This document shows, piece by piece, positions 4,425 through 45,612 of a DNA stretch of 64,000 nt (position 1 is the first letter of the stretch; the number at the start of each line of letters is the position of its first letter). Under the pieces are notes generated by a model. It did no database searches and was not told where the DNA came from. It saw only the letters and a list, made by a program, of their open reading frames with translations. The stretch comes from Verrucomicrobiia bacterium (GTDB taxonomy: Bacteria > Omnitrophota > Omnitrophia > Omnitrophales > Aquincolibacteriaceae), in NCBI GenBank assembly GCA_035495615.1, contig DATJFP010000026.1, positions 15,635 to 79,634 on the forward strand, written 5' to 3'. Both the position numbers and the translations under genes were made by a program.

Positions 4425-5034
4425 CGTCCTCCGCGTCGAAGATGGCGCGGACCACGGCAAAACGCCGCGCCCCGCAGGAATAAACCGATGAAAGATTGGA
4501 TGCGTCGATGCCCCCAATGGCGACAAAAGGCCGCGAAATCGCACGCGAAACTTCCCGGACAAGGCTCATACCGACCGGCTCGTACGCGGGTTTCGTCGGC
4601 GTCGAAAAAACGGGACCGACGCCGATGTAATCCACTTCTTCCGCCGCCGTACGAAGCGCCTGCTCGTAACTGTGCGTGGACTTGCCGAGAAACATTTCGG
4701 CGCCTGCCCTCCGCATCAAAGCGCTCACATCCGCGACCGGCATGTCGTCCTGGCCGATGTGAAGGCCGTCGGCCGACGTGGCAAGGGCAATGTCCAGGCG
4801 GTCATTCACAAAATAAAGTTTCCGGCAGCGGTCCGCGATTTCGCGGATCCGGCGCCCGCAGGCGACAAGCTCGCCGTCAGAGAGAGCCTTGGAACGCAGC
4901 TGCACGATGTCCGCGCCGCCGGCATAAGCCGCTTCCACCTTTTTGAAAAAAGAAACATCCCCCGCTTTGATGTCCGTCACCGCGTAAAGCCGGAAATTCC
5001 GGAACACTTCGCTTTTCCAACCGGTCATGGTCAT
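4357..5034 (-). CDS. thiE: thiamine-phosphate synthase
   Basis: 225 aa. LYAVTD, GADIVQLR, IGVGPVFSTPTK motifs typical of ThiE. Confidence 0.85.
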   Translation of the reverse strand: MTMTGWKSEVFRNFRLYAVTDIKAGDVSFFKKVEAAYAGGADIVQLRSKALSDGELVACGRRIREIADRCRKLYFVNDRLDIALATSADGLHIGQDDMPVADVSALMRRAGAEMFLGKSTHSYEQALRTAAEEVDYIGVGPVFSTPTKPAYEPVGMSLVREVSRAISRPFVAIGGIDASNLSSVYSCGARRFAVVRAIFDAEDVYAATKKLCEQIDACRENTAVA

Positions 5035-5519
5035 TGGCCGCTTTTTTCCAGGATCTTGGTGATCACGTTCGTCGTGGAACGCCCCTTCAAAAACGTGATG
5101 CGTTTCACTTTGCCGCCCCAGCTTTTGACTTCAGGTCCGCCGACAATGTCCCCCGTTTTCCAATCCGCGCCTTTCACCAGGACATCGGGACGGATTTTGA
5201 GGATAAGGTTGATAGGCGTGGGTTCGCCGAAAAGGATGACGTTGTCGACACAGGCAAGCGCGGAGAGGACTTCGAGCCGGTCTTCCTGGGGATTCACGGG
5301 ACGGGTCGGGCCTTTGTAAGCGCGCACGGAAGCGTCGTTGTTCACGCCGATGATGAGCACGTCACCCAGCGTGCGGGCTTTGGCCAGGTACCGGACATGT
5401 CCGGCGTGAAGGATGTCGAACGTACCGTTGGTGAACACGATCTTTTTGCGTTTGGCGCGGTACTTGGCGACGGTGCGGGCGAGCGAGGTCTCGGTGAGGA
5501 TCTTCGGCCCGGCTTTCAT
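5031..5519 (-). CDS. hldC: D-glycero-beta-D-manno-heptose 1-phosphate adenylyltransferase (RfaE domain II type)
   Basis: FTNGTFDILHAGHVRYL and VNPQEDRLEVL...VLVKGADW closely match E. coli RfaE C-terminal domain. Start taken at MKAGPKIL. Confidence 0.85.
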   Translation of the reverse strand: MKAGPKILTETSLARTVAKYRAKRKKIVFTNGTFDILHAGHVRYLAKARTLGDVLIIGVNNDASVRAYKGPTRPVNPQEDRLEVLSALACVDNVILFGEPTPINLILKIRPDVLVKGADWKTGDIVGGPEVKSWGGKVKRITFLKGRSTTNVITKILEKSGQ

Positions 5520-5523
5520 GAAC

Positions 5524-6099
5524 TCACGAACCGAAAAGCGTCGCTTCGACCACTTCCGAAACGGCATGCAGGCAGGTAATGTGCATTTCCTGGATGTGCG
5601 GGGTTTTGTCGGATTGGGCGCAGAAGCAGATGTCGGCGAACTTTTTCATTTGCCCGCCGCTCCGGCCCGTGAACGCAATCGTGACCAGCCCCTGAGCTTT
5701 GGCCTTTTCCATCGCCAGAAGCACGTTTTTGGAATTGCCACTCGTGGAAATCCCGATCAGGATGTCGCCTTTCTGGCCGAGGCCTTCCACCTGGCGGGCA
5801 AAAACGACTTCATAATTATAGTCGTTTGCCAGCGCGGTCAGGATGGACGAATCCGTGGTGAGCGCGATCGCGGGCAGGCTCCGTCTTTCCAGCTTGAAGC
5901 GCGCGATGAACTCCGCGGCAATGTGCTGGGAATCCGCCGCGCTTCCGCCGTTACCGCAAAGCAGCAGCTTGTTCCCGGAACGGAAGGCGCGCAGAATTTC
6001 TTTCGCGACTTTTTCCAGCACGGCCACATGCTCGGGAACGAACGTCTTTTCAACGGCGTCCCGGTGATCGTCAAGAATTTGTCCAAGGGGCTTGATCAT
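5524..6099 (-). CDS. gmhA: D-sedoheptulose 7-phosphate isomerase
   Basis: 191 aa SIS-domain protein. LCGNGGSAADSQH and GISTSGNS motifs. Confidence 0.85.
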   Translation of the reverse strand: MIKPLGQILDDHRDAVEKTFVPEHVAVLEKVAKEILRAFRSGNKLLLCGNGGSAADSQHIAAEFIARFKLERRSLPAIALTTDSSILTALANDYNYEVVFARQVEGLGQKGDILIGISTSGNSKNVLLAMEKAKAQGLVTIAFTGRSGGQMKKFADICFCAQSDKTPHIQEMHITCLHAVSEVVEATLFGS

Positions 6100-6101
6100 G
6101 A

Positions 6102-7133
6102 TTATCCGAAGAAGATGCTCGCCATTTCGTAAAAATCAGGCGGCACGGTTTTCAGCTTGCCCACGGCTTCCTGCAGGGAAACGTCGCCGATGTTGCGGCC
6201 CTGAAGGCTGACCATGTGGCCGAACTTCTCGAGCTTCACCAGCTCCACGGCCTTGACGCCGAAACGGGTGCCGAGCACGCGGTCAAACGCGGTCGGTGTG
6301 CCGCCGCGCTGGATGTGGCCGAGCACGGTGACGCGCGTTTCGAAACCGGTCTTCTTTTCGATGAGGTCGCCCAGCAGATTGCCCACCCCGCCGAGACGCA
6401 CGTGGCCGAACTGATCGAGTTTTTCTTCCGCGACCACGTTCTGGTTCTTCATGTGTGCGCCTTCGGCGACAGCCACGATGCTGAACGTCTTGCCGCGGGC
6501 GTGGCGGCGCTTGATGAGGTCGCAGACTTTTTCGATGTCGATCGCAACTTCGGGAATCAGAATCACGTCCGCCCCTCCGGCAAGGCCGGCTTCCAGGGTG
6601 ATCCAGCCGGCATGACGGCCCATGATCTCGACCACCATGACGCGGTTGTGCGATTCCGCCGTCGTATGAAGACGGTCGATGCATTCTGTGGCGATGTTGA
6701 GCGCCGTATCGAAGCCGAACGTGTAGTCGGTGGCGTTCAGGTCGTTATCGATGGTCTTCGGAACGCCTACGACGCGCACGCCTTCCTTATGAAGCCTGAA
6801 GGCCGCGCCGAGCGTGTCTTCGCCGCCGATCGCGATCAGGGCATGGAGATTGTTCTTTTCCATGGTCGCCTTGACCTTGGCAATGTCTTCGGGCTTTTTG
6901 CAGGGGTTCGTACGCGAGGTCCCGAGGATCGTGCCGCCTTTGGGAAGAATGCCGGAAACGGAGTTGTCGTCCAGGACGATGAAATCGCTCTCGAGCATGC
7001 CCCTCCAGCCGTAACGGAATCCGAGCGTCTTCCACTCGTCGCGCTGGGCCGCCTTCACCACCGCGCGGATTACTGCGTTCAATCCGGGGCAATCCCCGCC
7101 GCCTGTCAAAACTCCGATCTGCTTCATTTTCAA
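6102..7133 (-). CDS. pfk: 6-phosphofructokinase (ATP- or PPi-dependent)
   Basis: GVLTGGGDCPGLNAVIR, IGGEDTLG, MGRHAGW motifs. Confidence 0.85.
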   Translation of the reverse strand: MKMKQIGVLTGGGDCPGLNAVIRAVVKAAQRDEWKTLGFRYGWRGMLESDFIVLDDNSVSGILPKGGTILGTSRTNPCKKPEDIAKVKATMEKNNLHALIAIGGEDTLGAAFRLHKEGVRVVGVPKTIDNDLNATDYTFGFDTALNIATECIDRLHTTAESHNRVMVVEIMGRHAGWITLEAGLAGGADVILIPEVAIDIEKVCDLIKRRHARGKTFSIVAVAEGAHMKNQNVVAEEKLDQFGHVRLGGVGNLLGDLIEKKTGFETRVTVLGHIQRGGTPTAFDRVLGTRFGVKAVELVKLEKFGHMVSLQGRNIGDVSLQEAVGKLKTVPPDFYEMASIFFG

Positions 7134-34871: not shown

Positions 34872-36491
34872 TTATCTCCCTTTCCCGACACTAGCCGGCT
34901 CGTTATAAACGTAATTGCTCTTCGGGCCGGGGCCGTTCTTGCGTGTAGACAGCGGTGTCTCTGAAAACTTGTCCAGCTTCACGCCCACATAACCCGGAAC
35001 GCCCATTTCGGGAATGTCCAAACCTTCGACTTCGTCATCCGGCCGGACACGCAGCCCGATCGTGACATCGATCGCCTTAAGCACAATGTAGCCGATGACG
35101 CCCACGTAAACCACGTTTGCAAGAACGCCGATGCAGGAAGCCACAAACTGACTGGGATCGCCATAAAAAAGTCCGCGAACCGTTCCCGCAACGCCGTTCC
35201 AGCCGTCGCCGTACGTTCCGTCGGCGAAAAGGCCCGTGGCCAGAATGCCCCATGCGCCGTTCACGCCATGAACCGCTACGGCGCCGACGGGATCATCGAT
35301 CTTAAGCACGCCTTCAAAGAAATACACGGCTTCGACGACGAGCAGGCCCGAAACCGCGCCGATGATGCAGGCGTTCACCGAATTCACGAAAGCGCAGGGC
35401 GCCGTGATGGCGACAAGGCCCGCGAGCATACCGTTGCACATCATGCTGGGATCCGGCTTCTTGGTGCGGACTAGCCACATCCAAAGCGTTGCGACGAGCG
35501 CGCCGGTCATGGAGGCCAGCATCGTGTTCGTAGCCACGACGGAAATACGCAGGTCCGTGCCCGCCAGCGTGGAGCCGGGATTAAATCCGAACCATCCGAA
35601 GGCGAGAATGAACGTGCCGACAATGGCCATCGGGATATTATGCCCGGGAATCGCGTTGGGAGTTCCGTCCGCATTGAACTTCCCGATCCTGGGGCCAATG
35701 AGTTTCGCGCCCACGAAAGCCAGGACGCCGCCCGTCAAATGCACCACCGAAGAGCCTGCGAAGTCCACATGCCCATGGCCCAGACCGAAATTCTGGCCGA
35801 GCATGGCCAGCCAGCCGCCGCCCCAGGTCCAGTTGCCATAAATCGGATAGATGATGCTGCCCACGAAAAGGCCGTACACGACAAACGCCGAAAATTTCCA
35901 ACGCTCGGCCATGGATCCCGTAGGAATCGTTGCGGTCGTGTCCATGAACACCATCTGGAAAAGGAACATCGCGAAGATCGCGGCGTCATAGGATTGTCCC
36001 GTCAGGAAAAAGCCTTTCATGCCGAAAAGGCCGAAACTTTTTCCGAAAAGGTGCAGCGTAAACTCATGGTTCAGGACATCCACGCCTCCCAGCGTGCCAA
36101 ACGCTCCGATGCCTCCGAACATTAACGCAAACCCGCACACGTAGAAACCCAGCATGCCCAAGGGATAGATCATGAAGTTCATGGACATCGTATGCGCCGC
36201 GTTTTTTGCGCGGCAAAGCCCGGTTTCCACCATGGCAAAACCCGCTTGCATGAACATCACGAGAAATCCGGTGATTAGCGTCCATACAAAGTTAATCGAG
36301 ACCTTGTTATGGCCCACTGCGGTCGCGAGTTCTTGGAGAGTCGGCGCGCCCGCCGTGGCAGCCGTAACGTCAGCAGCAGTTCCGGTCAGTGCGCCGCTCG
36401 GATCGGCATCCTTGGCGAAAGCCAGGACCGGCACTATCAGCCCGAAAGCGAATAGCCCTAGGAAAAAAAGACTCACTAATTTCTTTTGCAT
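34872..36491 (-). CDS. amtB: ammonium transporter
   Basis: 539 aa Amt/MEP family with cleavable signal peptide and 11 TM core. Immediately upstream of glnK on the same strand. Confidence 0.85.
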   Translation of the reverse strand: MQKKLVSLFFLGLFAFGLIVPVLAFAKDADPSGALTGTAADVTAATAGAPTLQELATAVGHNKVSINFVWTLITGFLVMFMQAGFAMVETGLCRAKNAAHTMSMNFMIYPLGMLGFYVCGFALMFGGIGAFGTLGGVDVLNHEFTLHLFGKSFGLFGMKGFFLTGQSYDAAIFAMFLFQMVFMDTTATIPTGSMAERWKFSAFVVYGLFVGSIIYPIYGNWTWGGGWLAMLGQNFGLGHGHVDFAGSSVVHLTGGVLAFVGAKLIGPRIGKFNADGTPNAIPGHNIPMAIVGTFILAFGWFGFNPGSTLAGTDLRISVVATNTMLASMTGALVATLWMWLVRTKKPDPSMMCNGMLAGLVAITAPCAFVNSVNACIIGAVSGLLVVEAVYFFEGVLKIDDPVGAVAVHGVNGAWGILATGLFADGTYGDGWNGVAGTVRGLFYGDPSQFVASCIGVLANVVYVGVIGYIVLKAIDVTIGLRVRPDDEVEGLDIPEMGVPGYVGVKLDKFSETPLSTRKNGPGPKSNYVYNEPASVGKGR

Positions 36492-36683
36492 TTCGTTGGC
36501 TCCTTCTGTTTGCGAGACAAATCTGTGAATTTGACGAGGTCTTAATCAAGGTTCATGCCATCGACTTTTTTATTGATGCCATATTGATATCAATGCTTGA
36601 AACTTTCTTTTTAGAAGCAATGCTTTTATGTCACGAAAATCGGGCGGGCTTACAAAAATGAAGACAAACACAAAATTGACTGC

Positions 36684-37412
36684 TTAGGCGGGGACGGAAA
36701 TGGACGGAGGATCAATACGAAGACGATATCCCACGGCGGGCTCCGTGAGAATATAAATAGGACGCGCCGGGTCGGGCTCGAGTTTCTTGCGCAGGTTATA
36801 AATAACGACACGCAAAAGATGGTCCATCCGATGGACACTCTGATCATTATTCCAAACTTGTTTGTAGAGCTGCTCCGTTCTGACGATTTTACCCGCGCTC
36901 AAAACCAGGGCCTTCAGCACATCGTATTCCGTCGGCGTGAGATGCTGCGTGCGGTCCCCGACTTTGACGATACGCTGCTCGCCATCGAAAACAAGTTCGC
37001 CGGTCTTGAAAATCGGAGTTCCGCCTTTCGGCAGCCAGCGGCGCATGAGCGCTCGAACGCGGGCTAGAAACTCCGAAGGGCTGAAGGGCTTGGTGACATA
37101 GTCGTCGGCGCCTGCGTCAAGCGCCGCCACTTTATCCGCTTCGTCTCCGCGGACCGAGAGAATCATGATGGGTGTAGCCGCGCGCTGGCGTATCTCTCTG
37201 GCCACCTCGACTCCGCTGATATCGGGCAGTTTCAAATCCAGAATAATCGCATCAGGATGCGCTTTTACCGCGGCTTTCAAAGCCGCGCGGCCGTTAGCCG
37301 CTTCAAAGGTGCGGTACCCCTGGGATTGGAGCATTCTTTTGAGAACGCGCCTCAGCGGACGTTCGTCATCCACGATCAAAATACGCACCCCGTCTTTTTT
37401 AGGCCTAAGCAT
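36684..37412 (-). CDS. OmpR-family response regulator, KdpE-like (pair 1)
   Basis: Receiver domain (ILIVDDE...DLKLPD...DYVTKPF) plus winged-helix output (LTPTEYDVL, GYRL). Confidence 0.8.
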   Translation of the reverse strand: MLRPKKDGVRILIVDDERPLRRVLKRMLQSQGYRTFEAANGRAALKAAVKAHPDAIILDLKLPDISGVEVAREIRQRAATPIMILSVRGDEADKVAALDAGADDYVTKPFSPSEFLARVRALMRRWLPKGGTPIFKTGELVFDGEQRIVKVGDRTQHLTPTEYDVLKALVLSAGKIVRTEQLYKQVWNNDQSVHRMDHLLRVVIYNLRKKLEPDPARPIYILTEPAVGYRLRIDPPSISVPA

Positions 37413-38541
37413 GGGGCTTCTCGATGCAAAAAGGCAATTCCACAATCATTTTCGTCCCCTTTTCCGGCAGATTTTCGGCCCAGATTTTTCCTTGGTGCGC
37501 CTCAACAATTCCTTGGCAAATCGAGAGGCCGAGACCTGTACCCGGAATTTTCTGCGTTCGTTCACCGCGGTAGAACTTATCAAAGATACGATGCAATTCC
37601 CGTTCCGGAATGCCCGGGCCCTCGTCAGAAATTTCAATACGGACGCTTTGCATCGAGGTTTTGATCTCGAGCAAAACCAAAGAACCCCTGGGCGAATACT
37701 TCAGGGCATTGTCGATCACATTGACTAAGACTTTCAGCATCAGGTCGTAGTCGACGCAGGCTTCCGGGAGCTCATCCGGAAGAAGGACGCGCACACGATA
37801 TCCTTCCTCCCCCCGGGATAACTGCTGCAATGCCACTCCGATGAGATCGCTTAAGTCGCATGGTTTCCGGGTCAGCTCTAAAATGCCTCCCTCGACCTTG
37901 GTCATGTCCAATAAATTTTCAACGAGCTGACTGAGTCTCCCCGCCTCCGCGTTGGCTGTCGTAATGAGCTGCCGGCGGGAGGATTCATCCAGGTCCATGT
38001 TGTGGTGCATCAGATTCCCCAGGGCCGCAGTGATCGAGGACAACGGCGTTTTTAGATCATGAGAGATCGAGTTCAACAAAGTTGAATACAGTTTCTCCTT
38101 CTCCCGCAAAAGCTCCATCTGCTGAGTTTTCATGAGGCTGCGTCGGAGGCGCGTCGTCAAAGTGCTGATCGTGATTCCTACAATCAAGAATCCGGCCAGG
38201 GTGACGAAATCGTGCTGACTGAATGTGGCGAAGCTGAATTGCGGCGGGATGAAAAGGTAATCAAAAGCCAGCACGCTGGCGATCGAAGAGGCGATTGCGG
38301 GGCCACGGCCCCATTTGAGCGCAATAATTACGACCCCTAAGAGATAAAAAATAATGAGGTCGGTTGTGATCAGAAAGGCTTTGGCATAGGCAATCCAACC
38401 CGCAAGAAAAGCCGCTGCCACCAACATCAGGCTCAGGATATATGGCATGACGCGATCGGTTTTTTTTCCACCCCACTTCATGGTCATGAGAGCCCCTACG
38501 GATCGATAATTGTATCGAACGTCAGGGAAAGAAAATATCAA
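37405..38541 (-). CDS. sensor histidine kinase, KdpD C-terminal type (4-TM + HisKA + HATPase only)
   Basis: TM block LAFDYLFIPPQFSFATFSQHDFVTLAGFLIVG matches the KdpD membrane domain. LLNSISHDLKTPL H-box. No N-terminal KdpD/Usp domain and no GAF linker. Confidence 0.8.
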   Translation of the reverse strand: MIFSFPDVRYNYRSVGALMTMKWGGKKTDRVMPYILSLMLVAAAFLAGWIAYAKAFLITTDLIIFYLLGVVIIALKWGRGPAIASSIASVLAFDYLFIPPQFSFATFSQHDFVTLAGFLIVGITISTLTTRLRRSLMKTQQMELLREKEKLYSTLLNSISHDLKTPLSSITAALGNLMHHNMDLDESSRRQLITTANAEAGRLSQLVENLLDMTKVEGGILELTRKPCDLSDLIGVALQQLSRGEEGYRVRVLLPDELPEACVDYDLMLKVLVNVIDNALKYSPRGSLVLLEIKTSMQSVRIEISDEGPGIPERELHRIFDKFYRGERTQKIPGTGLGLSICQGIVEAHQGKIWAENLPEKGTKMIVELPFCIEKPHA

Positions 38542-38654: not shown

Positions 38655-39728
38655 ATGCAGAGACAAGACTCGCCGATCAAATATCATTTTATCTGGCACG
38701 GTTATGCCCAGAGCCTTCTCATGGTGGTTCTGGTCACGCTTGGCGGGGAACTACTCAAGCGCACGATCGAGCCCATCAACCTTATCATGTTCTATCTTTT
38801 GGCCGTGATCGTCGCGGGCATCCGCTGGGGCCACGGCCCCGCTGTCCTGACTTCCGTTCTGAGCGTGCTTGCCTTTGATTTTTTTCTCATCCCTCCCTAT
38901 CTGACTTTCGGCGTCGAAGATTTCCAGTACGTCTTTACCTTCGCGGGTTTTCTCATTGTAGGTCTGATCACAAGCGAACTGATGACAAAAACAAAGGAGC
39001 AGGCGCGCAAAGCGCGGCAATTGGAACTGCTTCGAGCGACAAAAAAACTGCAGACAGCGCTCCTCAATTCAGTCTCGCACGACTTGCGCACGCCGCTGGC
39101 TTCGATCATCGGATCCATCAGCATGCTCCTGCAAGACGAGCCTTCCCTCGCCGAAGAAACCATAAAGGGGCTGCTCCGGGACGCCTATGGGGAATCGCTG
39201 CGCTTGAATCGCTTGGTCGGGAACCTCCTCGACATGACGCGGCTTGAAGCCGGCGCTCTGAATCTTTCTTTTAAATCCTGCGATTTAAGAGACGTGCTCG
39301 GCGTGGCTTTGCAGGAGCTCGCCGACAAATTGGAGCAGCGCCGAATTAAAACCCAGATCCCTCACGACCTCCCGGAAATCAGCGCGGACTTTTCTTTGAT
39401 CATGAAGGTGCTCGTGAATTTAATCGATAATGCGGCGAAATATTCGTCTGAGGACACACCGATCCGCATTGCCGCCAAAACGCAGGGCGACCGGATTAAA
39501 ATTGAAATCATGGACGAGGGAATTGGAATTGCCCCCAAAGACTTGAAACCTATCTTCGACAAATTTTACCGCGCTTCCCATCCGTCGACGGTCGAGGGTC
39601 TCGGGCTTGGGCTCTCGATAGCGAAAGGAATCGTGGAGGCGCATCATGGCGAAATCTGGGCGGAAAGCGGCGCGGGAAAAGGGACGACATTCGTCGTGCT
39701 TTTGCCTTACTCCAAGGAGACCGCATGA
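38655..39728 (+). CDS. sensor histidine kinase, KdpD C-terminal type (pair 2, paralog of 37405-38541)
   Basis: LAFDFFLIPPYLTFGVEDFQYVFTFAGFLIVG TM block. LLNSVSHDLRTPL H-box. About 50% identical to the divergent paralog. Confidence 0.8.
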   Translation: MQRQDSPIKYHFIWHGYAQSLLMVVLVTLGGELLKRTIEPINLIMFYLLAVIVAGIRWGHGPAVLTSVLSVLAFDFFLIPPYLTFGVEDFQYVFTFAGFLIVGLITSELMTKTKEQARKARQLELLRATKKLQTALLNSVSHDLRTPLASIIGSISMLLQDEPSLAEETIKGLLRDAYGESLRLNRLVGNLLDMTRLEAGALNLSFKSCDLRDVLGVALQELADKLEQRRIKTQIPHDLPEISADFSLIMKVLVNLIDNAAKYSSEDTPIRIAAKTQGDRIKIEIMDEGIGIAPKDLKPIFDKFYRASHPSTVEGLGLGLSIAKGIVEAHHGEIWAESGAGKGTTFVVLLPYSKETA

Positions 39729-40426
39729 AGGAGCAGCACGCCTTGCGCGCGTTGATTGTCGATGACGAGAAGGCCTTGCGCCGTTTTCTCAAGACCGCAC
39801 TGTCGTCCCACGGCTATCAAGTGTTCGAAGCCGGCAACGGCCTAGAGGCCCTCGAAGAATCCGTATCCTGCCATCCCGACGTCATCATCATCGACCTGGG
39901 CCTGCCCGACAAGGACGGCATCGAGGTCACGCGCGAGATCCGCCGGCGCACGAAGACGCCCATCATCATTTTGTCGGTGCGCGACCGCGAAGAGGACAAA
40001 ATCCAGGCGCTCGACGCGGGCGCGGACGACTACCTCACCAAGCCTTTCAGCGCAGGCGAATTGATGGCGCGTCTGCGGGCCGTCATCCGCCGCCTAGTTC
40101 CGCAAAACGAAACCACATTTTTTAAAGCCGGCAAATTAGCGATCGATATCGGCAAGCACACGGTGGAATTAAACGGCCGCGCCCTCCAGCTCTCGCCGAC
40201 CGAATTCGACATCGTTAAAGTGCTGGTCATGAACGCCGGAAAAGTCGTGACTCAAAAGCAGATCTTGAAAGAAGTCTGGAACAAAACCGAAGAAATGGAA
40301 GGGGCTTCCCATCTTCTCCGCGTCACCATCAGCAATCTGCGCAACAAAATCGAGCCCAATCCCGACCGTCCCACCTATCTTCTCACCGAGCCGGGCGTGG
40401 GATACCGCCTTCATACCGAAGATTGA
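39725..40426 (+). CDS. OmpR-family response regulator, KdpE-like (pair 2)
   Basis: ALIVDDEKALRRFL...DLGLPDKDG...DYLTKPF receiver. LSPTEFDIVKVL...GVGYRL winged helix. ATGA overlap with upstream kinase. Confidence 0.85.
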   Translation: MKEQHALRALIVDDEKALRRFLKTALSSHGYQVFEAGNGLEALEESVSCHPDVIIIDLGLPDKDGIEVTREIRRRTKTPIIILSVRDREEDKIQALDAGADDYLTKPFSAGELMARLRAVIRRLVPQNETTFFKAGKLAIDIGKHTVELNGRALQLSPTEFDIVKVLVMNAGKVVTQKQILKEVWNKTEEMEGASHLLRVTISNLRNKIEPNPDRPTYLLTEPGVGYRLHTED

Positions 40427-40459
40427 TTTGAAAGATTTTCCGCTTACCCATTTCCTCTT

Positions 40460-40504
40460 TTGACTCTCTTTTGACTTGGCCTTCCTTTGCCTCACGGCTA
40501 TCTT
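40460..40504 (+). promoter_or_regulatory. activator-type promoter: 11-bp-phased direct repeat TTGACTC-N4-TTGACTT, then TATCTT -10 element 22 nt downstream, no canonical -35
   Basis: Same architecture with identical spacings recurs at 43682-43726, upstream of the second riboswitch. Confidence 0.35.
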
Positions 40505-40514
40505 TTGCATAGAT

Positions 40515-40695
40515 CGAACAAGCCGAATCCGGATGACGGATCGGGGGACCCAGAGAAGGCTCCGGAGCTCGATGCTTCGGGGCGATAAGCAGCTCGAAAC
40601 TTGGTGTTTTTAGCTATCGGGGCGAATCACTGCAAAGTGAAAGGTTTCCACTCGACCTTAGCCCGACAGCTAACCCCGTAGGCGAAACGGAGAGA
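40515..40695 (+). promoter_or_regulatory. c-di-AMP riboswitch (ydaO/kimA class) in leader of ptsN-like/kimA operon
   Basis: GAAUCCGGAUGACGGAUCGGGGGACCCAG ... GGGGCGAAUC ... GUUUCCACUC ... AGCCCGACAGCUAACCCCGUAGGCGAAACGGAGAG. Conserved blocks remembered from the ydaO motif (GAAUC, ACGG..GGGGGACCCA, GGGGxGAAUC, CCCGAAGG-GCAA-like 3' end). Confidence 0.75.
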
Positions 40696-40796
40696 ACTGT
40701 GCACCGCATTTTCGAACCGCGCTTTTCAATCCTTTCCGTTTCCCCTGGTTTCACCGCCGAAGCGTTCCGCGCAGACGGGCTTTCAAGGAGGACGCC

Positions 40797-41381
40797 ATGG
40801 TTTCACTCATCGTGTTAGGAGGAGCAAAAATGCTGTCGTTTCGAAAGCAAAGGCAGGAAACATCATTAAGGCGCGGGCAGGCCGCCGCGAATCAGAGCTT
40901 AGGCCAAGCGGCGTTAAAAATTTCCGACTACCTGACGTCCGAACAGATTTGTTTTTTCCCCGAGGGAACAAACGCGCTCAGGGTATTCTCGGATTTGATA
41001 GGCACTCTCTCGATACCAAACCGGGAGTTCGCTTTGGAAGCCGTTCTTCGCAGGGAACAAGTCGGCGGGACGATCGTGGCTCCGGGAATCGCGCTTCCCC
41101 ATGCTCGGATTGACGGCACGGACCGGTTGCATTCGGCTCTCGCTCTTTGCCCAAGCGGTATCAAGCTCAGCGAAGACGAACCGGCGATCCGCCTGCTCCT
41201 CCTTTTTGTCAGCCCTTTTACCGAACTGAAAAACCACTTACGCTTTCTGGCCGCGGCAGCAGCTTTATTTCAAGACGAAATGCTTTGCGGCGACATGATC
41301 GCGCTGAAGTCGAGCGATGCCATTTTGGAAAAACTAAAACACAAAGAAATGAAAACCCATGCCGAACATTCCACAAAATAA
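40797..41381 (+). CDS. PTS EIIA type-2 protein, EIIA(Ntr)/PtsN-like
   Basis: ALEAVLRREQVGGTIVAPGIALPHARIDG...LLLLFVSPFTELKNHLRFL aligns with E. coli PtsN around the phosphorylatable His (GIAIPHG). AGGAGG RBS 7 nt upstream. Confidence 0.75.
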   Translation: MVSLIVLGGAKMLSFRKQRQETSLRRGQAAANQSLGQAALKISDYLTSEQICFFPEGTNALRVFSDLIGTLSIPNREFALEAVLRREQVGGTIVAPGIALPHARIDGTDRLHSALALCPSGIKLSEDEPAIRLLLLFVSPFTELKNHLRFLAAAAALFQDEMLCGDMIALKSSDAILEKLKHKEMKTHAEHSTK

Positions 41382-43389
41382 GTCGGTCCCTCGAAACGTC
41401 GTCATTGTGACGACCGCCATGCTGAGCTTTATCAGTTTCTGGCGGGCCGCCGCGATCGTGCTTTGCGATATTGCCTCCACGGTTTATTACATCGGCGGCA
41501 TTGCCGAGCATGCCATCGGAAAAGCCGCTCCGTGGTTTATTTTGGGCGTGATGCTCTTTTCCTACACGGTACGCGCCATTTACATCGAGTCTTGCGGCAT
41601 GTTTGTCCGCGGCGGCGTATACCGCGTCGTCAAGGAGGCTATGGGAGGAACGCTCGCCAAACTTTCCGTCTCGGCCCTGATGTTTGACTATGTCTTGACC
41701 GGGCCCATCAGCGCGGTTTCGGCAGGCCAATACATGGTCGGCCTTTTGAACACGACGTTTCCACACTTCGGCTTACCGTGGCATTTTCGCGCTGATATTT
41801 TTTCCGTTTTGTTCGCCGTCGCCGTCACGCTCTATTTCTGGTGGGAAAACGTTAAAGGCATTCCCGAGTCGAGCGACAAAGCCCTCAAAATCATGATCGC
41901 CACGACGATCATGGGCATCACCATGATCATTTGGAGCGTGACGACGCTCCTCGTGCGAGGCATCCACTGGCCCCCTTTCACTCCCGTCTTTAACGAAGAC
42001 TCGCTGGGCTGGCTGTATTCTCTGAAAGACAAGATCAAACCTCTGGGCGTCCTCGGCCTCACCATCGCCTTCGGCCATTCGCTGCTCGCCATGTCCGGCG
42101 AAGAATCCCTTGCCCAGGTCTACCGGGAAATCAAAGCGCCCAAGCTCAAGAATCTCGAAAAAGCAGCCTTCATCGTCTTTCTCTACAGCATGCTGTTGAC
42201 CACGCTGGGAAGTTTTTTCGCGATCATGATCATTCCCGATTCCGTGCGCATGAGCCAATACTCCGACAATCTGATAAGCGGCCTTGCGATGTATTTCGTC
42301 GGCCCGCTCCAACTCAGACTCCTTTATCAAGCCTTCGTGGTCTTCGTCGGATTTTTAATTCTTGCCGGCGCGGTGAATACGTCCATTATCGGGTCGAACG
42401 GGGTCCTCAATCGGCTGGGAGAAGACGGCATCCTGCCCGAGTTCCTCAGAAAGCCTCATGCCCGTTTCGGCACGTCTTCGCGGCTCATCAATATGACAGT
42501 AGGACTTCAACTGCTGACGATCGTACTCTGCCGGGGGAATATTTACGTGCTCGGTGAGGCCTATGCCTTCGGCGTCATCTGGAGCTTCGTATTCAAGGCC
42601 CTGGCCGTCCTCATCCTCCGCTATAAAGACAAGATGCCGCGCGAATGGAAAGTGCCCTTGAATATCAAAATCAAAGGCCTGGAATTCCCGGTCGGAATCG
42701 CCGCTATTTTTCTGATCCTTCTCCTTACCGCCAGCGCGAACCTTGTGACGAAAAAGGTCGCCACAATTTCCGGCTCCCTTTTTGCCCTTGTCTTTTTTGC
42801 CGTATTTGTGGCTTCGGAAAAGATCAACAAGCGGAAGCATCATGCCCTTCATGGCCAGCATGACATTCACGCGGGCCACATCGACCGGGTCAATCTGAAT
42901 GAGATCGAAAATCTCAGCCCCGAAAGTTGCGGCTGCACGAAACCCCGAAGGGTCATTGTTGCCGTACGAGGCCCGCACAGCCTCAGCCATCTCGAAAAAA
43001 CGCTCCATCAGATCCATCCGGAAGACACCGATGTCGTGGTGCTGACTTCGAAAGTCGGCAAGGGCTACCAGTTGGAAGGCGATTTGAGCCGTGTCGCGCC
43101 GGAGGAAGAAAAGCTCTTTACCCGCGTGATTGAAGTGGCAGAGAAAGTCGGCCGAACCGTCATCCTGCTGTCGGTCCCGACGAACGATCCTTACTACGTG
43201 ATGGCGCGCATCGCGCACGAGTTAAAAGCGCAGGAACTCGTGGTCGGAAAATCTGAAAAATTTTCCCCCGAAGTTCAGATGGAGGAAATCGCGATTGCCT
43301 GGGGCGCCGTGACGCCGCCGCGCCAGCATGTGCCGCCTCTGATGATTCGGATTCTGTGGGATGGGAAAGAAATGACCGAAATGTTCTAA
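41359..43389 (+). CDS. kimA: KimA-family K+ importer (APC superfamily) with C-terminal cytoplasmic Usp-like domain
   Basis: 676 aa, 12-TM APC fold. SGEESLAQV region corresponds to KimA SGVEAISN. C-terminal RRVIVAVRGPHSLSHLEK...VVVLTS...VILLSVP resembles the B. subtilis KimA cytoplasmic domain. Preceded by ydaO-class riboswitch. Confidence 0.75.
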   Translation: MPNIPQNKSVPRNVVIVTTAMLSFISFWRAAAIVLCDIASTVYYIGGIAEHAIGKAAPWFILGVMLFSYTVRAIYIESCGMFVRGGVYRVVKEAMGGTLAKLSVSALMFDYVLTGPISAVSAGQYMVGLLNTTFPHFGLPWHFRADIFSVLFAVAVTLYFWWENVKGIPESSDKALKIMIATTIMGITMIIWSVTTLLVRGIHWPPFTPVFNEDSLGWLYSLKDKIKPLGVLGLTIAFGHSLLAMSGEESLAQVYREIKAPKLKNLEKAAFIVFLYSMLLTTLGSFFAIMIIPDSVRMSQYSDNLISGLAMYFVGPLQLRLLYQAFVVFVGFLILAGAVNTSIIGSNGVLNRLGEDGILPEFLRKPHARFGTSSRLINMTVGLQLLTIVLCRGNIYVLGEAYAFGVIWSFVFKALAVLILRYKDKMPREWKVPLNIKIKGLEFPVGIAAIFLILLLTASANLVTKKVATISGSLFALVFFAVFVASEKINKRKHHALHGQHDIHAGHIDRVNLNEIENLSPESCGCTKPRRVIVAVRGPHSLSHLEKTLHQIHPEDTDVVVLTSKVGKGYQLEGDLSRVAPEEEKLFTRVIEVAEKVGRTVILLSVPTNDPYYVMARIAHELKAQELVVGKSEKFSPEVQMEEIAIAWGAVTPPRQHVPPLMIRILWDGKEMTEMF

Positions 43390-43400
43390 GCGAGAAAAGG

Positions 43401-43685
43401 ATGGATTTCTTTTTAAAATTCACTCTCATCTCTTATGCCTCGATTTTCTTTTTCACACTGGGATTGCGCCTGGCTGTTTCCAGCGAATTGGACTTGCGGG
43501 TCATCCAACTTTTTCTTATTTTTGCCGCTGTCTCGCTTCCTTTGTCTCTGACCTTCAAATCCCAGCCTTTGTATAGCCGTTTTCTGATGTCCCTGACCTG
43601 CACCTCCCTCATTCTGACCGGTTTCCGTTTCGGCAGGAAAATAAAGCGTTTGGGTGAAGAAAATCCCCTCAAACGTCATTTTTGA
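43401..43685 (+). CDS. small 3-TM membrane protein ending ...GFRFGRKIKRLG (paralog of 45622-45891)
   Basis: 94 aa. RBS GAAAAGG. Shares FFLxFxLxSYAxIFFFxxGL...FKSxPL...GFRFGRKI with the ORF following the second kimA. Confidence 0.5.
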   Translation: MDFFLKFTLISYASIFFFTLGLRLAVSSELDLRVIQLFLIFAAVSLPLSLTFKSQPLYSRFLMSLTCTSLILTGFRFGRKIKRLGEENPLKRHF

Positions 43686-43736
43686 CTCGTTTTTGACTCG
43701 TCCAATGCCCTCTCCCCGAGTATTTTGTCACGATTA

Positions 43737-43880
43737 ACGACAAGCCGAATCCCGACAGGGATCGGGGGACCCGATAAAGCGGCTCTCAAAGTTTTGAGCC
43801 ATGGGCGAATCCGCCGGAGCGCGGAGAGGTTTCCACTCAACCTCAGCCCGTCAGCTAACCCCGAAGGCGCAACGGAGAGG
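43737..43880 (+). promoter_or_regulatory. c-di-AMP riboswitch (ydaO/kimA class), second copy, abutting the kimA2 start codon
   Basis: ACAAGCCGAAUCCCGACAGGGAUCGGGGGACCCGA ... GGGCGAAUCC ... GUUUCCACUC ... AGCCCGUCAGCUAACCCCGAAGGCGCAACGGAGAGG. Co-linear with the first copy. The conserved 3' AACGGAGAGG contains the RBS for ATG at 43885. Confidence 0.75.
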
Positions 43881-43884
43881 TGTT

Positions 43885-45612
43885 ATGTCTTTGATGCTCA
43901 AAAAAGTCGATCGCCCGCGCGAATTGAAGTGGTATCAGGCGGGCGCCATGCTGTACGGCGATTGGGGAACCAGCAAGGCCTATGTGCTTGGCATCGCCTT
44001 CGCTCTTGCCGGCCACGCTTCCTGGTTTTTCCTCGGCCTCATGTCCGCGCTTACGGCCCTCATCGGCGTCTGCTACATGGTGATTTGCCGCGTGTATCCG
44101 GACGGCGGCGGCGTTTATTCTTCCGTGAAGCATCGCCACCGCCTGCTCGCGGTGATCGGCGCGTTTCTTTTGATCGCGGATTACGTGATTACCGCGTCGC
44201 TCAGCACGCTCGACGCCTTCCATTATTTCAACGCGCCGCATCCGGAAATCTGGGCCGTGGCCACGATCCTCGTCATCGGCGCCATCAACTGGCTCGGGCC
44301 CAGCAAATCCAGCACGATCGCGTCTTACATCGCCGTCGTGGCCTCGGCGGGCGCCCTGATTCTTTTCGCGGCAACCGTTCCCTCGCTCTCCCATGTGCAT
44401 CTGACCTGGCCCGGCAGCGACTGGCCCAAAAATTGGACGGTTTTCGTCGGCATCGTGCTCGCGCTTTCCGGCGTGGAAGCCATTGCCAACATGACGGGCA
44501 TCATGGAAGAGCCCGTCGAAAAAACATCCAAGCGCGCGATCTGGCCCGTGCTCCTGGAAGTTTCCGTGCTGACCTTTCTGCTTGGCATTGCCATGAATGC
44601 CATCCCGAACCTCAAAGACCATACCGAAGACATGCTCCGCGTCCTGGCCACGCATTATATCGGGCCTTGGTACGGCGCCTTCATCTCGCTCGCGTTCGGC
44701 TTCCTGCTGCTTTCGGCGACCAACACCGCCATCGGCGACCTGGTCAGCATCCAGTTTTTGATGGCCAAAGACCGCGAGCTGCCCGAAGCTTTCTCAAAGC
44801 TAAACCGCTTTGGCATGCCGGGCCTTGCGCTGATCATCGCCACGGCGATCCCCGCGGGCGTTTTAATCTTCGAGCACGATCTGGTTAAACTCGCGGCACT
44901 CTATGCCATCGGCGTGATCGGTGCCATCACGATCAATCTCGGCGCCTGCGCGACCAACTTCAAGATCCCGCTGAGCCGGAAGGAACGCATCCTCCTCGGC
45001 ATCGGCGCGGTCATCCTTTTTTTTATTGAATTGACGATCGCCTTCGAAAAGCACCACGCCCTGATTTTCGCGCTCACGGTCCTCGCGGTCGGATTGTCGC
45101 TGCGCTATGCCGCCAAGACGTTCCTGCCGATTCCGGTGCCGGCGCTTGCGCCCACGGTCAATCTGCTCACCGTTTCCGAAGCCAGAGAAATAGCGCCGCT
45201 TTACAAAAGCTCGTCGCTTGTCGCGATCCGCAGCTTTAATCCCGCGGTGCTCGACGAAGCCGCGCTGCGCGTGAAGGCCCTCAAGGAAAACGCGGTTTAT
45301 TTGAGCTACATCGAGGAAACTCCCACCGTGGCGGAATTGCCGGATGAAATCGAACCGTCCTCTCACTCCCTCGAAGTCCTGGGAGAGGCTCAGAAGGCCA
45401 TGGAGGAACGCGGGGTCACCGGCATCCCGGTCTGGCAGATCGGCGATGATCCCGGCCGCATGATCGCCAAAGCCGCGGCCGAACTTGGAGTCAATACGGT
45501 CATGATCGGGACGACGAGGCGCAGCGCGCTGGTCAACCTTCTCCGCGGCGACGTGCTGCGAACGCTCGCCCGTCATTTACCCAGAGAATGCCGCCTGGTG
45601 ATCAGCGGCTAG
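43885..45612 (+). CDS. kimA: KimA-family K+ importer, second paralog
   Basis: CYMVICRVYPDGGGVYSSVKH matches KimA YRQIIYAYPQGGGAYIVSKE. LALSGVEAIANMTG matches SGVEAISN. C-terminal Usp-like domain. Start moved from ORF-track 43801 to 43885 to clear the riboswitch. Confidence 0.8.
   Translation: MSLMLKKVDRPRELKWYQAGAMLYGDWGTSKAYVLGIAFALAGHASWFFLGLMSALTALIGVCYMVICRVYPDGGGVYSSVKHRHRLLAVIGAFLLIADYVITASLSTLDAFHYFNAPHPEIWAVATILVIGAINWLGPSKSSTIASYIAVVASAGALILFAATVPSLSHVHLTWPGSDWPKNWTVFVGIVLALSGVEAIANMTGIMEEPVEKTSKRAIWPVLLEVSVLTFLLGIAMNAIPNLKDHTEDMLRVLATHYIGPWYGAFISLAFGFLLLSATNTAIGDLVSIQFLMAKDRELPEAFSKLNRFGMPGLALIIATAIPAGVLIFEHDLVKLAALYAIGVIGAITINLGACATNFKIPLSRKERILLGIGAVILFFIELTIAFEKHHALIFALTVLAVGLSLRYAAKTFLPIPVPALAPTVNLLTVSEAREIAPLYKSSSLVAIRSFNPAVLDEAALRVKALKENAVYLSYIEETPTVAELPDEIEPSSHSLEVLGEAQKAMEERGVTGIPVWQIGDDPGRMIAKAAAELGVNTVMIGTTRRSALVNLLRGDVLRTLARHLPRECRLVISG

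Follow-up and report, generated by a model that had tools for sequence, protein, structure and literature searches.

We analysed a 64,000-nucleotide (nt) stretch (the window) of contig DATJFP010000026.1, which belongs to a bacterium of the Omnitrophota lineage. The window carries two copies of a short direct repeat, here called boxes 1 and 2, each standing ahead of a predicted promoter, a cyclic di-AMP (c-di-AMP) riboswitch and genes for membrane transport (Table 1). Box 1 lies downstream of the genes for a histidine kinase (HK1) and a KdpE-like regulator of the OmpR/PhoB family (RR1), the stop codon of which ends at position 40426, 33 nt before the box. It is followed by promoter 1, the first riboswitch and the genes of a phosphotransferase system (PTS) EIIA-2 domain protein and of a 676-amino-acid (aa) permease. 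Box 2 lies about 3 kb further downstream, where promoter 2 and the second riboswitch precede the gene of a 575-aa transporter.

The box and its chance expectation

Both boxes consist of two TTGACT half-sites in the same orientation, separated by 5 base pairs (bp) and therefore phased by 11 bp. The half-sites are found at 40460–40465 and 40471–40476 in box 1, and at 43682–43687 and 43693–43698 in box 2; with their flanks, box 1 (40457–40479) reads cttTTGACTctcttTTGACTtgg and box 2 (43679–43701) reads tttTTGACTcgtttTTGACTcgt. An initial annotation of this DNA had reported TTGACT repeats at 40460–40476 and 43682–43698, which is what the sequence reads, although the 18-letter strings that it quoted span 40460–40477 and 43682–43699 and thus run one base beyond those ranges. 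It had further placed a KdpE-like gene closely upstream of box 1, which is RR1 at the 33-nt gap counted above, and had called both promoters riboswitch promoters. The latter description is borne out by a significant match to Rfam family RF00379 after each of them (75.1 and 76.3 bits; gathering score 38).

The window was scanned for TTGACT-N5-TTGACT on both strands. Exactly two perfect matches were found where base composition predicts 0.004, and none occurred in 100 dinucleotide shuffles of the window. A 23-column matrix was also built from 21 boxes in other loci, with the window sites left out. It ranked box 2 first (27.9 bits) and box 1 second (25.0 bits), while the third-best site reached 14.0 bits and the top score in ten shuffles was at most 17.2 bits.

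Weaker matches in the window were considered and set aside. The third-best site, at 38541 on the minus strand at the 5′-end of the HK2 gene, a site at 42797 on the plus strand inside the permease gene (13.7 bits) and a site at 36573–36589 on the plus strand (12.6 bits; TTGATG-ccata-TTGATA) all score within the shuffle range and are not claimed as regulon sites. The last of these is itself an 11-bp-phased repeat that overlaps the palindrome TTGATATCAA; it lies between RR2 and amt, in the orientation opposite to amt, and could be a candidate operator of the paralogous regulator RR2. Only one extra site was found at up to two mismatches, at 41684; it is inside the permease gene, encodes the conserved peptide FDY[VI]LTGP and recurs in homologues. 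Similar matches in loci L017, L040, L045, L057 and L063 likewise encode FDY[VI]LTGP within the permease gene. Between the permease gene and box 2, a hydrophobic small open reading frame (ORF) can be found at 43356–43685 on the plus strand. Its likely start is the ATG at 43402, giving ~94 aa, and the TGA stop of this putative gene (43683–43685) falls inside the first half-site of box 2.

Homologous riboswitches follow both copies of the box, and the downstream transporters are distant paralogues. The boxes could on these grounds be read as a chance resemblance, or as a by-product of the recent duplication of a promoter–riboswitch cassette. The two promoters are identical at 15/17 positions of the box and 5/6 of the −10, but the figures drop to 7/22 for the spacer, 13/40 for the upstream DNA and 6/17 for the stretch from the −10 to the aptamer. 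Apart from box, −10 and aptamer, identity is at the random level, so the pair did not arise by recent duplication. With 0.004 sites expected by chance, and with the box kept in 27 further distinct promoters of other organisms, such a reading has next to no probability. It was already refuted by the matrix ranking, the survey of loci, the conservation of the promoters and the comparison of identities.

Table 1. Positions of the boxes, promoter elements, riboswitches and genes in the 64,000-nt window.
Feature	Position	Strand	Basis
Ammonium transporter (amt)	34872–36491	−	Pfam/NCBIfam
RR2, OmpR-type KdpE-like regulator; probably not the primary box binder	36684–37445	−	Pfam, NCBIfam; 54% identical to RR1
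HK2, mini-KdpD kinase of the divergent paralogous pair	37405–38541	−	Pfam, NCBIfam
HK1, “mini-KdpD” histidine kinase, 357 aa: DUF4118 membrane domain, HisKA, HATPase_c	38655–39728	+	Pfam
RR1, OmpR/PhoB-family KdpE-like regulator; proposed box binder	39725–40426	+	Pfam Response_reg and Trans_reg_C
Box 1, TTGACT-ctctt-TTGACT direct repeat, 11-bp phasing	40460–40476	+	Sequence; 25.0 bits by other-loci matrix
Weak −35-like TTGGCC, 4/6 match to TTGACA	40476–40481	+	17 nt before −10; overlaps last base of box 1
−10 hexamer TATCTT, promoter 1; predicted transcription start ~40511	40499–40504	+	22 nt after repeat 2
c-di-AMP riboswitch 1 (RF00379)	40511–40699	+	Rfam, 75.1 bits, model positions 1–134
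PTS EIIA-2 (PtsN-like) domain protein	40797–41381	+	Pfam PF00359; weak NCBIfam PtsN match
676-aa APC-superfamily permease, target of promoter 1	41359–43389	+	Pfam AA_permease_2, 3.8e-50
Box 2, TTGACT-cgttt-TTGACT	43682–43698	+	Sequence; 27.9 bits by other-loci matrix, top window match
Weak −35-like TCGTCC, 3/6 match	43698–43703	+	Sequence; 17 nt before −10
−10 hexamer TATTTT, promoter 2; predicted transcription start ~43733	43721–43726	+	22 nt after repeat 2
c-di-AMP riboswitch 2 (RF00379)	43733–43884	+	Rfam, 76.3 bits, model positions 1–134
575-aa KimA-like transporter, C-terminal Usp domain, target of promoter 2	43885–45612	+	Pfam Usp; fold match

Distribution of the box among related loci

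Permease homologues were fetched from genomes and RR1 homologues from metagenomes, which together provided 1.5 Mb of loci (numbered with the prefix L); the homologues are labelled mostly as Candidatus Omnitrophica or Omnitrophota. The box was found in 31 loci, giving 29 distinct promoters. These comprise the promoters of RR1-homologue loci, the two of the window and two more to which orthologues of the 575-aa protein led. Nearly all RR1 orthologues (55–79% identity) are followed, ~10–270 nt past their stop codon, by TTGAC(N)-N5-TTGACT, and the intergenic DNA around the boxes is otherwise unconserved. The consensus of the 29 promoters is tTTTTGACg-cTTTt-TTGACT-TG. The first half-site reads TTGAC(T/G/C/A) and the second TTGACT, with a cTTTt consensus spacer between them. 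Both half-sites start with TT in 29/29 promoters and their TTGAC cores are near-invariant (5/29 sites carry a variant core), while flanks and spacer contain essentially zero information.

Matrix matches of at least 17 bits in the 1.5 Mb are all found beside RR1 orthologues (31 loci) and all on the strand of the regulator gene. None occurs in the permease-homologue loci of other phyla, ~1.1 Mb in all, that carry no RR1 orthologue, none beside regulators with other helices, and none beside the RR2-like regulators in L115 and L116. In two loci (L094, 4770–4810; L113, 582–620), two tandem boxes stand 23 bp apart before the riboswitch. They read TTGACG-N5-TTGATT and TTGACA-N5-TTGATG, which makes four half-sites, and the second box is closer to the −10 than usual.

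The regulators beside the boxes can be recognised by their recognition helix. HLLRV(T/M)xSNLR is common to all box-associated regulators, and regulators with the canonical KdpE helix HYLR(V/I)YM..LR or with other helices have no such box nearby. When RR1 is aligned to the Escherichia coli KdpE chain 6lgq_D, its helix SHLLRVTISNLR pairs with SHYLRIYMGHLR, and LTEP pairs with ITET. RR1 keeps R193, R200 and T215 (E. coli KdpE numbering) and has L, T, S and N at the positions of E. coli Y191, Y195, G197 and H198. All three of the retained residues are required for binding by E. coli KdpE, and R193 is conserved only among KdpE orthologues (PMC3264566). From its distribution in sequence, the box is almost certainly a functional cis-element tied to the RR1 clade of regulators.

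Two further loci bear on the pairing of helix and operator. A regulator in L004 that is 43% identical has the helix VRIIVHQLRQRIE, and the 11-bp-phased repeat TCGTAA-caccc-TCGTAA (within 6040–6110), with TAACTT ~22–24 nt later, precedes the same operon of secreted-protein, EIIA and permease genes; helix and operator have apparently co-changed here. The helix in L109 is HLLRVNISNLR, followed by TTGACC-N5-TTGATG and TTGATA-N5-TTGATA (1465–1540), which hints at a related TTGAT-type operator subfamily.

A different factor could also recognise the box, be it RR2 or a protein of the OmpR family encoded elsewhere. RR2 shares 54% identity with RR1, its helix DHLLRVVIYNLR is similar to SHLLRVTISNLR, and cross-talk is common between paralogous regulators. 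The box, however, tracks the RR1-type helix. The HK1-RR1 pair is the sole such pair within the stretch fetched for most of the 31 box-bearing loci, and no site of at least 17 bits accompanies the RR2-like regulators of L115 and L116. We therefore judge a different factor unlikely. Of the two regulators that the initial annotation had named as candidates, RR1 (39725–40426) is thus the one favoured by the helix data, and RR2 (36684–37445) is not.

The genes that follow the box differ between loci. Many loci have a riboswitch and a permease gene, with or without the EIIA gene, whereas L082 has a riboswitch and KtrB/TrkH, and L099, L100, L107 and L110 have KtrB/TrkH without a riboswitch. In L096, also without a riboswitch, the box is followed by a small peptide, kdpF and kdpA, and the kinase and regulator genes adjoin. 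The order in L091 is kdpB, kdpC, a hybrid TTTATG-N5-TTGACT, 22 nt, TATGAT and the RR1 orthologue; this is the only locus with TTTATG as its first half-site. In L092 (4735–5990), kinase, regulator and box are followed by a 152-aa ORF with a hydrophobic N-terminus (secreted, as judged by eye). Next come TTGACA-17-TATGAT, a c-di-AMP riboswitch (5324–5516) with a terminator, a small peptide, kdpF and kdpA, which places the two-component system ~1.2 kb upstream of a riboswitch-controlled kdpFA. The RR1 orthologues linked to kdp genes in L091, L092 and L096 share 64–68% identity with RR1.

Two orthologues of the 575-aa protein carry the box as well. In L161 (84% identity) the box is followed after 21 nt by TAAGCT and then by a riboswitch, in a neighbourhood free of regulator genes. 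L165 (80% identity) has the kinase and regulator genes ahead of the box, then TAATCT after 22 nt and the transporter gene, without a riboswitch. With such varied downstream genes, and a riboswitch present at only some of the loci, it is the regulator that the box accompanies and not the riboswitch. The box heads kdpF-kdpA, KtrB/TrkH and KimA-like permease genes, so the regulon is centred on potassium uptake.

Some arrangements extend beyond transporters. The genes nuoABCD stand directly after the box in L095, L097 and L101, where a 22-nt spacer leads to TAATAT or TACTAT (for example L097, with the box at 4723–4739 and nuoA at 4829), and complex I is possibly an unexpected member of the potassium regulon. 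L002 (3995–6230) and L079 (3753–5999) each contain two riboswitches. The upstream one has a perfect TTGACA-17-TATAAT promoter and stands ahead of the operon for kinase and regulator, so that c-di-AMP would also gate the synthesis of the two-component system; the box promoter then heads a ~48-aa hydrophobic peptide ORF, after which comes the second riboswitch.

Promoter geometry and mode of action

A −10 hexamer of the form TAT(C/T)TT had been claimed to follow exactly 22 nt after the second repeat, and this spacing was confirmed for TATCTT (40499–40504) and TATTTT (43721–43726). It is also a property of the wider set: of the 29 distinct promoters, 21 have TAnnnT exactly 22 nt past repeat 2 and all 29 have it at 21–23 nt, as against 0–3 of the 29 at every other offset. 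If the −10 is set at positions −12 to −7, repeat 2 occupies −40 to −35 and repeat 1 occupies −51 to −46. The predicted position of the box is thus −51 to −35, with its centre at about −43, where the transcription start is inferred from the −10.

The repeat had also been described as replacing the −35 in promoters that have no usable one. Replacement does not hold, since a weak remnant of the −35 (TTGnnn) adjoins the box and shares one base with it: the final T of repeat 2, together with the conserved TG, yields a TTGnnn exactly 17 nt before the −10, and TTG is found at the −35 position in 18/29 related promoters. As for the lack of a usable −35, weak hexamers (TTGGCC and TCGTCC) do stand 17 nt before the −10 in the window, but the description is right that the element is poor. 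The mean consensus match of the box promoters is 2.7/6 at the −35 and 3.8/6 at the −10.

Promoters without the box look different in the same lineages. TTGACA-17-TATAAT precedes the riboswitch of the kinase gene in L002 and L079, TTGACA-17-TATGAT occurs in L003 and, in L092, ahead of the riboswitch for kdp, and TTGACG-18-TACAAT precedes the kinase gene in L165. Given these canonical box-free promoters, the 22-nt spacing is no peculiarity of the lineage; sigma-70 geometry is of the usual kind in these organisms, and the weakness is intrinsic to the box promoters.

TTGACT matches the sigma-70 −35 consensus at 5/6 positions. The repeat might accordingly represent a duplicated −35 in a long-spacer or alternative-sigma class of promoter that needs no activator. 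The −35/−10 spacer of sigma-70 promoters ranges from 16 to 19 nt, however, and a 22-nt spacer falls outside it. TAnnnT is found 16–18 nt after either repeat in just 0–2 of the 29 promoters, and the same lineages possess canonical TTGACA-17-TATAAT promoters. The motif, moreover, co-occurs with one regulator clade only. Alternative −10 elements at 16–18 nt after either TTGACT were sought in their own right; nothing is conserved there, and a simple consensus promoter scan was empty at both sites. We regard this explanation as very improbable.

It is also conceivable that the box is an RR1 operator at which binding represses transcription by occluding the −35, or serves as a roadblock or insulator between the regulator gene and the operon that follows. 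One base of the −35 hexamer is part of the box, and the box invariably comes directly behind the regulator gene, at a place where read-through would have to be kept in check. Remote copies without an upstream regulator gene nevertheless exist (L161 and box 2 of the window). The core promoter is weak, with its mean −35 match of 2.7/6, while the box-free sister promoters are strong and canonical. The 21–23 nt distance from box to −10, kept in 29/29 promoters, is expected for activation from one face of the helix and would be needless for occlusion. KdpE, finally, is an activator in E. coli (PMC3264566). Repression or a roadblock is therefore an improbable role for the box, and we infer that RR1 probably binds it and activates transcription. 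In keeping with this, the class-II KdpE-type operator that was initially proposed gains support, at the level of sequence, from the co-occurrence with the RR1 clade, the fixed −10 spacing and the weak −35.

The relation of the promoters to the riboswitches is also regular. The predicted −10 sits 9–19 nt before the first aptamer helix in every riboswitch-bearing box locus (17 nt in promoter 1), and the predicted starts in the window (~40511 and ~43733) are ~10 nt before that helix. The 3′ tail of riboswitch 2, GGAGAGG, is the ribosome-binding site of the 575-aa transporter gene. A terminator was looked for in the leader of riboswitch 1 and none that convinces came to light; folding of 40660–40840 was no better than that of shuffles (z = 0.28).

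The kinase-regulator pair and its proposed regulon

Both kinases in the window, HK1 and HK2, contain DUF4118, HisKA and HATPase_c domains and find their best match in the C-terminal part of KdpD. HK1 aligns to positions 660–884 of the 895 positions of NCBIfam KdpD NF007793 (262 bits, against a cut-off of 1123), and its gene is directly upstream of the regulator gene in orthologous loci also. KdpE is the best-scoring NCBIfam family for RR1 and likewise the best match of RR2 (204 bits, below the 325 cut-off). The best PDB matches of RR1 are E. coli KdpE chains (6lgq_D, 1e-60; 4kny, 4e-60), followed by the RegX3 family (1e-44).

The 676-aa permease and the 575-aa protein are distant paralogues with 24% identity (E = 5e-14), and neither phmmer nor a 12-sequence profile matched the permeases to a PDB sequence. 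The AlphaFold model of the 575-aa protein (pLDDT 73.6) has the B. subtilis KimA structures 8b70, 8b71 and 6s3k as its best PDB folds over the full length (E = 5e-16 to 3e-15), with cation-chloride cotransporters ranking after KimA. The TM value is 0.6 and sequence identity to KimA is just 18%, and no PDB match to the membrane domain was found at the sequence level. The model thus points to a KimA-like fold, and potassium transport is only predicted. The EIIA gene, of which the likelier start is ATG 40830 after AGGAGG, also precedes the permease gene in many orthologous loci. Its PtsN/EIIA(Ntr)-like product (40797–41381) is predicted to be co-transcribed with the permease under control of box and riboswitch. 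EIIA(Ntr) of E. coli modulates KdpD and Trk, an analogy that suggests a feedback loop from this protein onto the kinase or the transporter.

Taken together, the two boxes are likely to be operators of a phosphorylated RR1 dimer with HK1 as the partner kinase, acting in series with the riboswitches. RR1 would be phosphorylated via HK1, presumably in response to potassium limitation, and its dimer would bind the repeat head-to-tail on one face of the helix. Positioned against the degenerate −35, RR1 would bring sigma-70 RNA polymerase to a promoter too weak to work alone, in a class-II-like manner. Transcription would start ~10 nt before the c-di-AMP aptamer, and high c-di-AMP would turn expression off. 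The kimA c-di-AMP riboswitch of B. subtilis is an OFF switch. That of the B. thuringiensis kdp operon is an OFF switch as well (PMC6488665). The EIIA-permease operon and the KimA-like gene would consequently be expressed only if the kinase signals and c-di-AMP is low.

Several points weigh against this scheme. All the evidence for the operator is comparative. The 224.3-bit score of RR1 against NCBIfam KdpE NF007820 is below the cut-off of 325, and HK1 lacks the N-terminal and Usp domains of KdpD (Pfam), with the signal to the kinase only presumed. RR2, with its similar helix, could bind the box too. Genes for kdpA, kdpC, trkH and nuoD were looked for in the window and not found; kdp, trk and ktr genes are absent from it. 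The regulator of L098 (2833–3516) has the box-type helix HLLRVTISNLR and yet its 5.7-kb contig contains no box, although its target promoter may be elsewhere. The KimA-like orthologues of L162, L163, L164, L166 and L167 (71–77% identity) have neither box nor riboswitch, and given such box-free orthologues among nitrogen genes, potassium is only a presumed substrate of the KimA-like gene product. Lastly, the half-site core is TTGAC and not the TTTA(T/C)A of E. coli, and the box is predicted at −51 to −35, abutting the −35, as against an E. coli footprint of −72 to −50. With both half-site and position differing, the E. coli activation geometry cannot simply be transferred.

The gene neighbourhoods of the KimA-like family deserve mention in their own right. 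In L162, L163, L164 and L166 the gene is found among amt and glnB, with glnA and/or a sigma-54 activator nearby. In L167 it adjoins a gene with a GlnE domain, and in the window amt adjoins the RR2-HK2 pair. A link of this family to ammonium or nitrogen metabolism is possible.

E. coli KdpE is the closest solved relative of RR1, and R193, R200 and T215 are common to both. Its operator at kdpFABC is TTTATA-N5-TTTACA according to Sugiura 1992, as cited in Narayanan 2012 (PMC3264566), with invariant TT starts, a T-rich spacer and a footprint at −72 to −50 (PMC3264566). Like the box, it has a pair of direct repeats of 6 bp each, with a 5-bp spacer and 11-bp phasing, invariant TT half-site starts, a T-rich spacer and T-rich 5′ flanks, and it points the same way relative to the gene it regulates; the E. 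coli TTTACA matches the TTGACT of the window at 4/6 positions. In the related locus L096 the box stands ahead of kdpF-kdpA, and the genes of kinase and regulator adjoin. Unlike kdpFABC, the targets in the window are APC/KimA-like permeases and the predicted transcripts begin with a c-di-AMP riboswitch.

The promoters also resemble OmpR/PhoB class-II promoters, which have tandem direct repeats with one-turn phasing at or next to the −35, a poor −35, a recognisable −10 and a fixed distance between site and −10. The pho box takes the place of the −35 altogether and is ~10 bp from the −10 on its upstream side, whereas the gap here is 22 nt and a residual TTG is kept at the −35. Split KdpD systems, in which a C-terminal-half kinase works with a regulator, are known from Deinococcus radiodurans and cyanobacteria (PMC5716572). 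HK1-RR1 can be likened to them: the kinase is again a C-terminal half (DUF4118, HisKA, HATPase_c) paired with a KdpE-like regulator, which in those systems binds a T-rich region of a potassium-transporter promoter (PMC5716572). In contrast to them, no KdpD-N gene was seen beside HK1-RR1 in the window, comparison here resolves the operator to single bases, and the regulon extends to non-Kdp transporters.

RF00379 aptamers are found in potassium-uptake leaders of B. subtilis kimA and ktrAB and of B. thuringiensis kdp (PMC6488665), and the likeness to the window includes the KimA-like fold. None of the genomes with an effective KdpDE was reported to have a riboswitch-controlled kdp as well, and mutual exclusivity was suggested for kdp regulation (PMC6488665). 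In the window, by contrast, a KdpE-like operator and a riboswitch stand in series on the same units, for non-kdp importers, and L092 holds a KdpDE-like system and a riboswitch-controlled kdp operon in one locus.

By 2017, the sequences that KdpE binds at kdp promoters were known from just four species (PMC5401905), and a ChIP (chromatin immunoprecipitation)-derived KdpE motif has been described for Caulobacter (bioRxiv 10.1101/2023.07.05.547876). As known KdpE sites differ between phyla, lineage-specific operators are to be expected; our literature search for a TTGAC-type KdpE box found no description of one. The class of mechanism is familiar. What is new is the definition of the operator, the re-specified helix, the predicted regulon and the coupling in series to c-di-AMP riboswitches.

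A broader scheme can be proposed with slightly more reserve than confidence. Omnitrophota-like and related uncultured bacteria may use a truncated KdpD/KdpE system with the helix HLLRVTISNLR, acting through TTGACN-N5-TTGACT at −51 to −35, to control a whole potassium regulon (kdp, ktr/trk, two KimA-like APC families, an EIIA(Ntr)-like protein and possibly complex I). In-series c-di-AMP OFF-riboswitches would then make it a two-input AND gate, with two-component control of transcription initiation and c-di-AMP riboswitch control predicted to be stacked on the same genes. If true, such an AND-gate regulon would run counter to the mutual exclusion reported for control by KdpDE and by c-di-AMP riboswitches. 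The box provides a comparatively validated, base-resolution operator for a KdpE clade of uncultivated bacteria, and the matched change in the helix offers a handle on how specificity is re-programmed in the OmpR/PhoB family. The predicted regulon would also assign a potassium-related role to two uncharacterised families of APC permeases.

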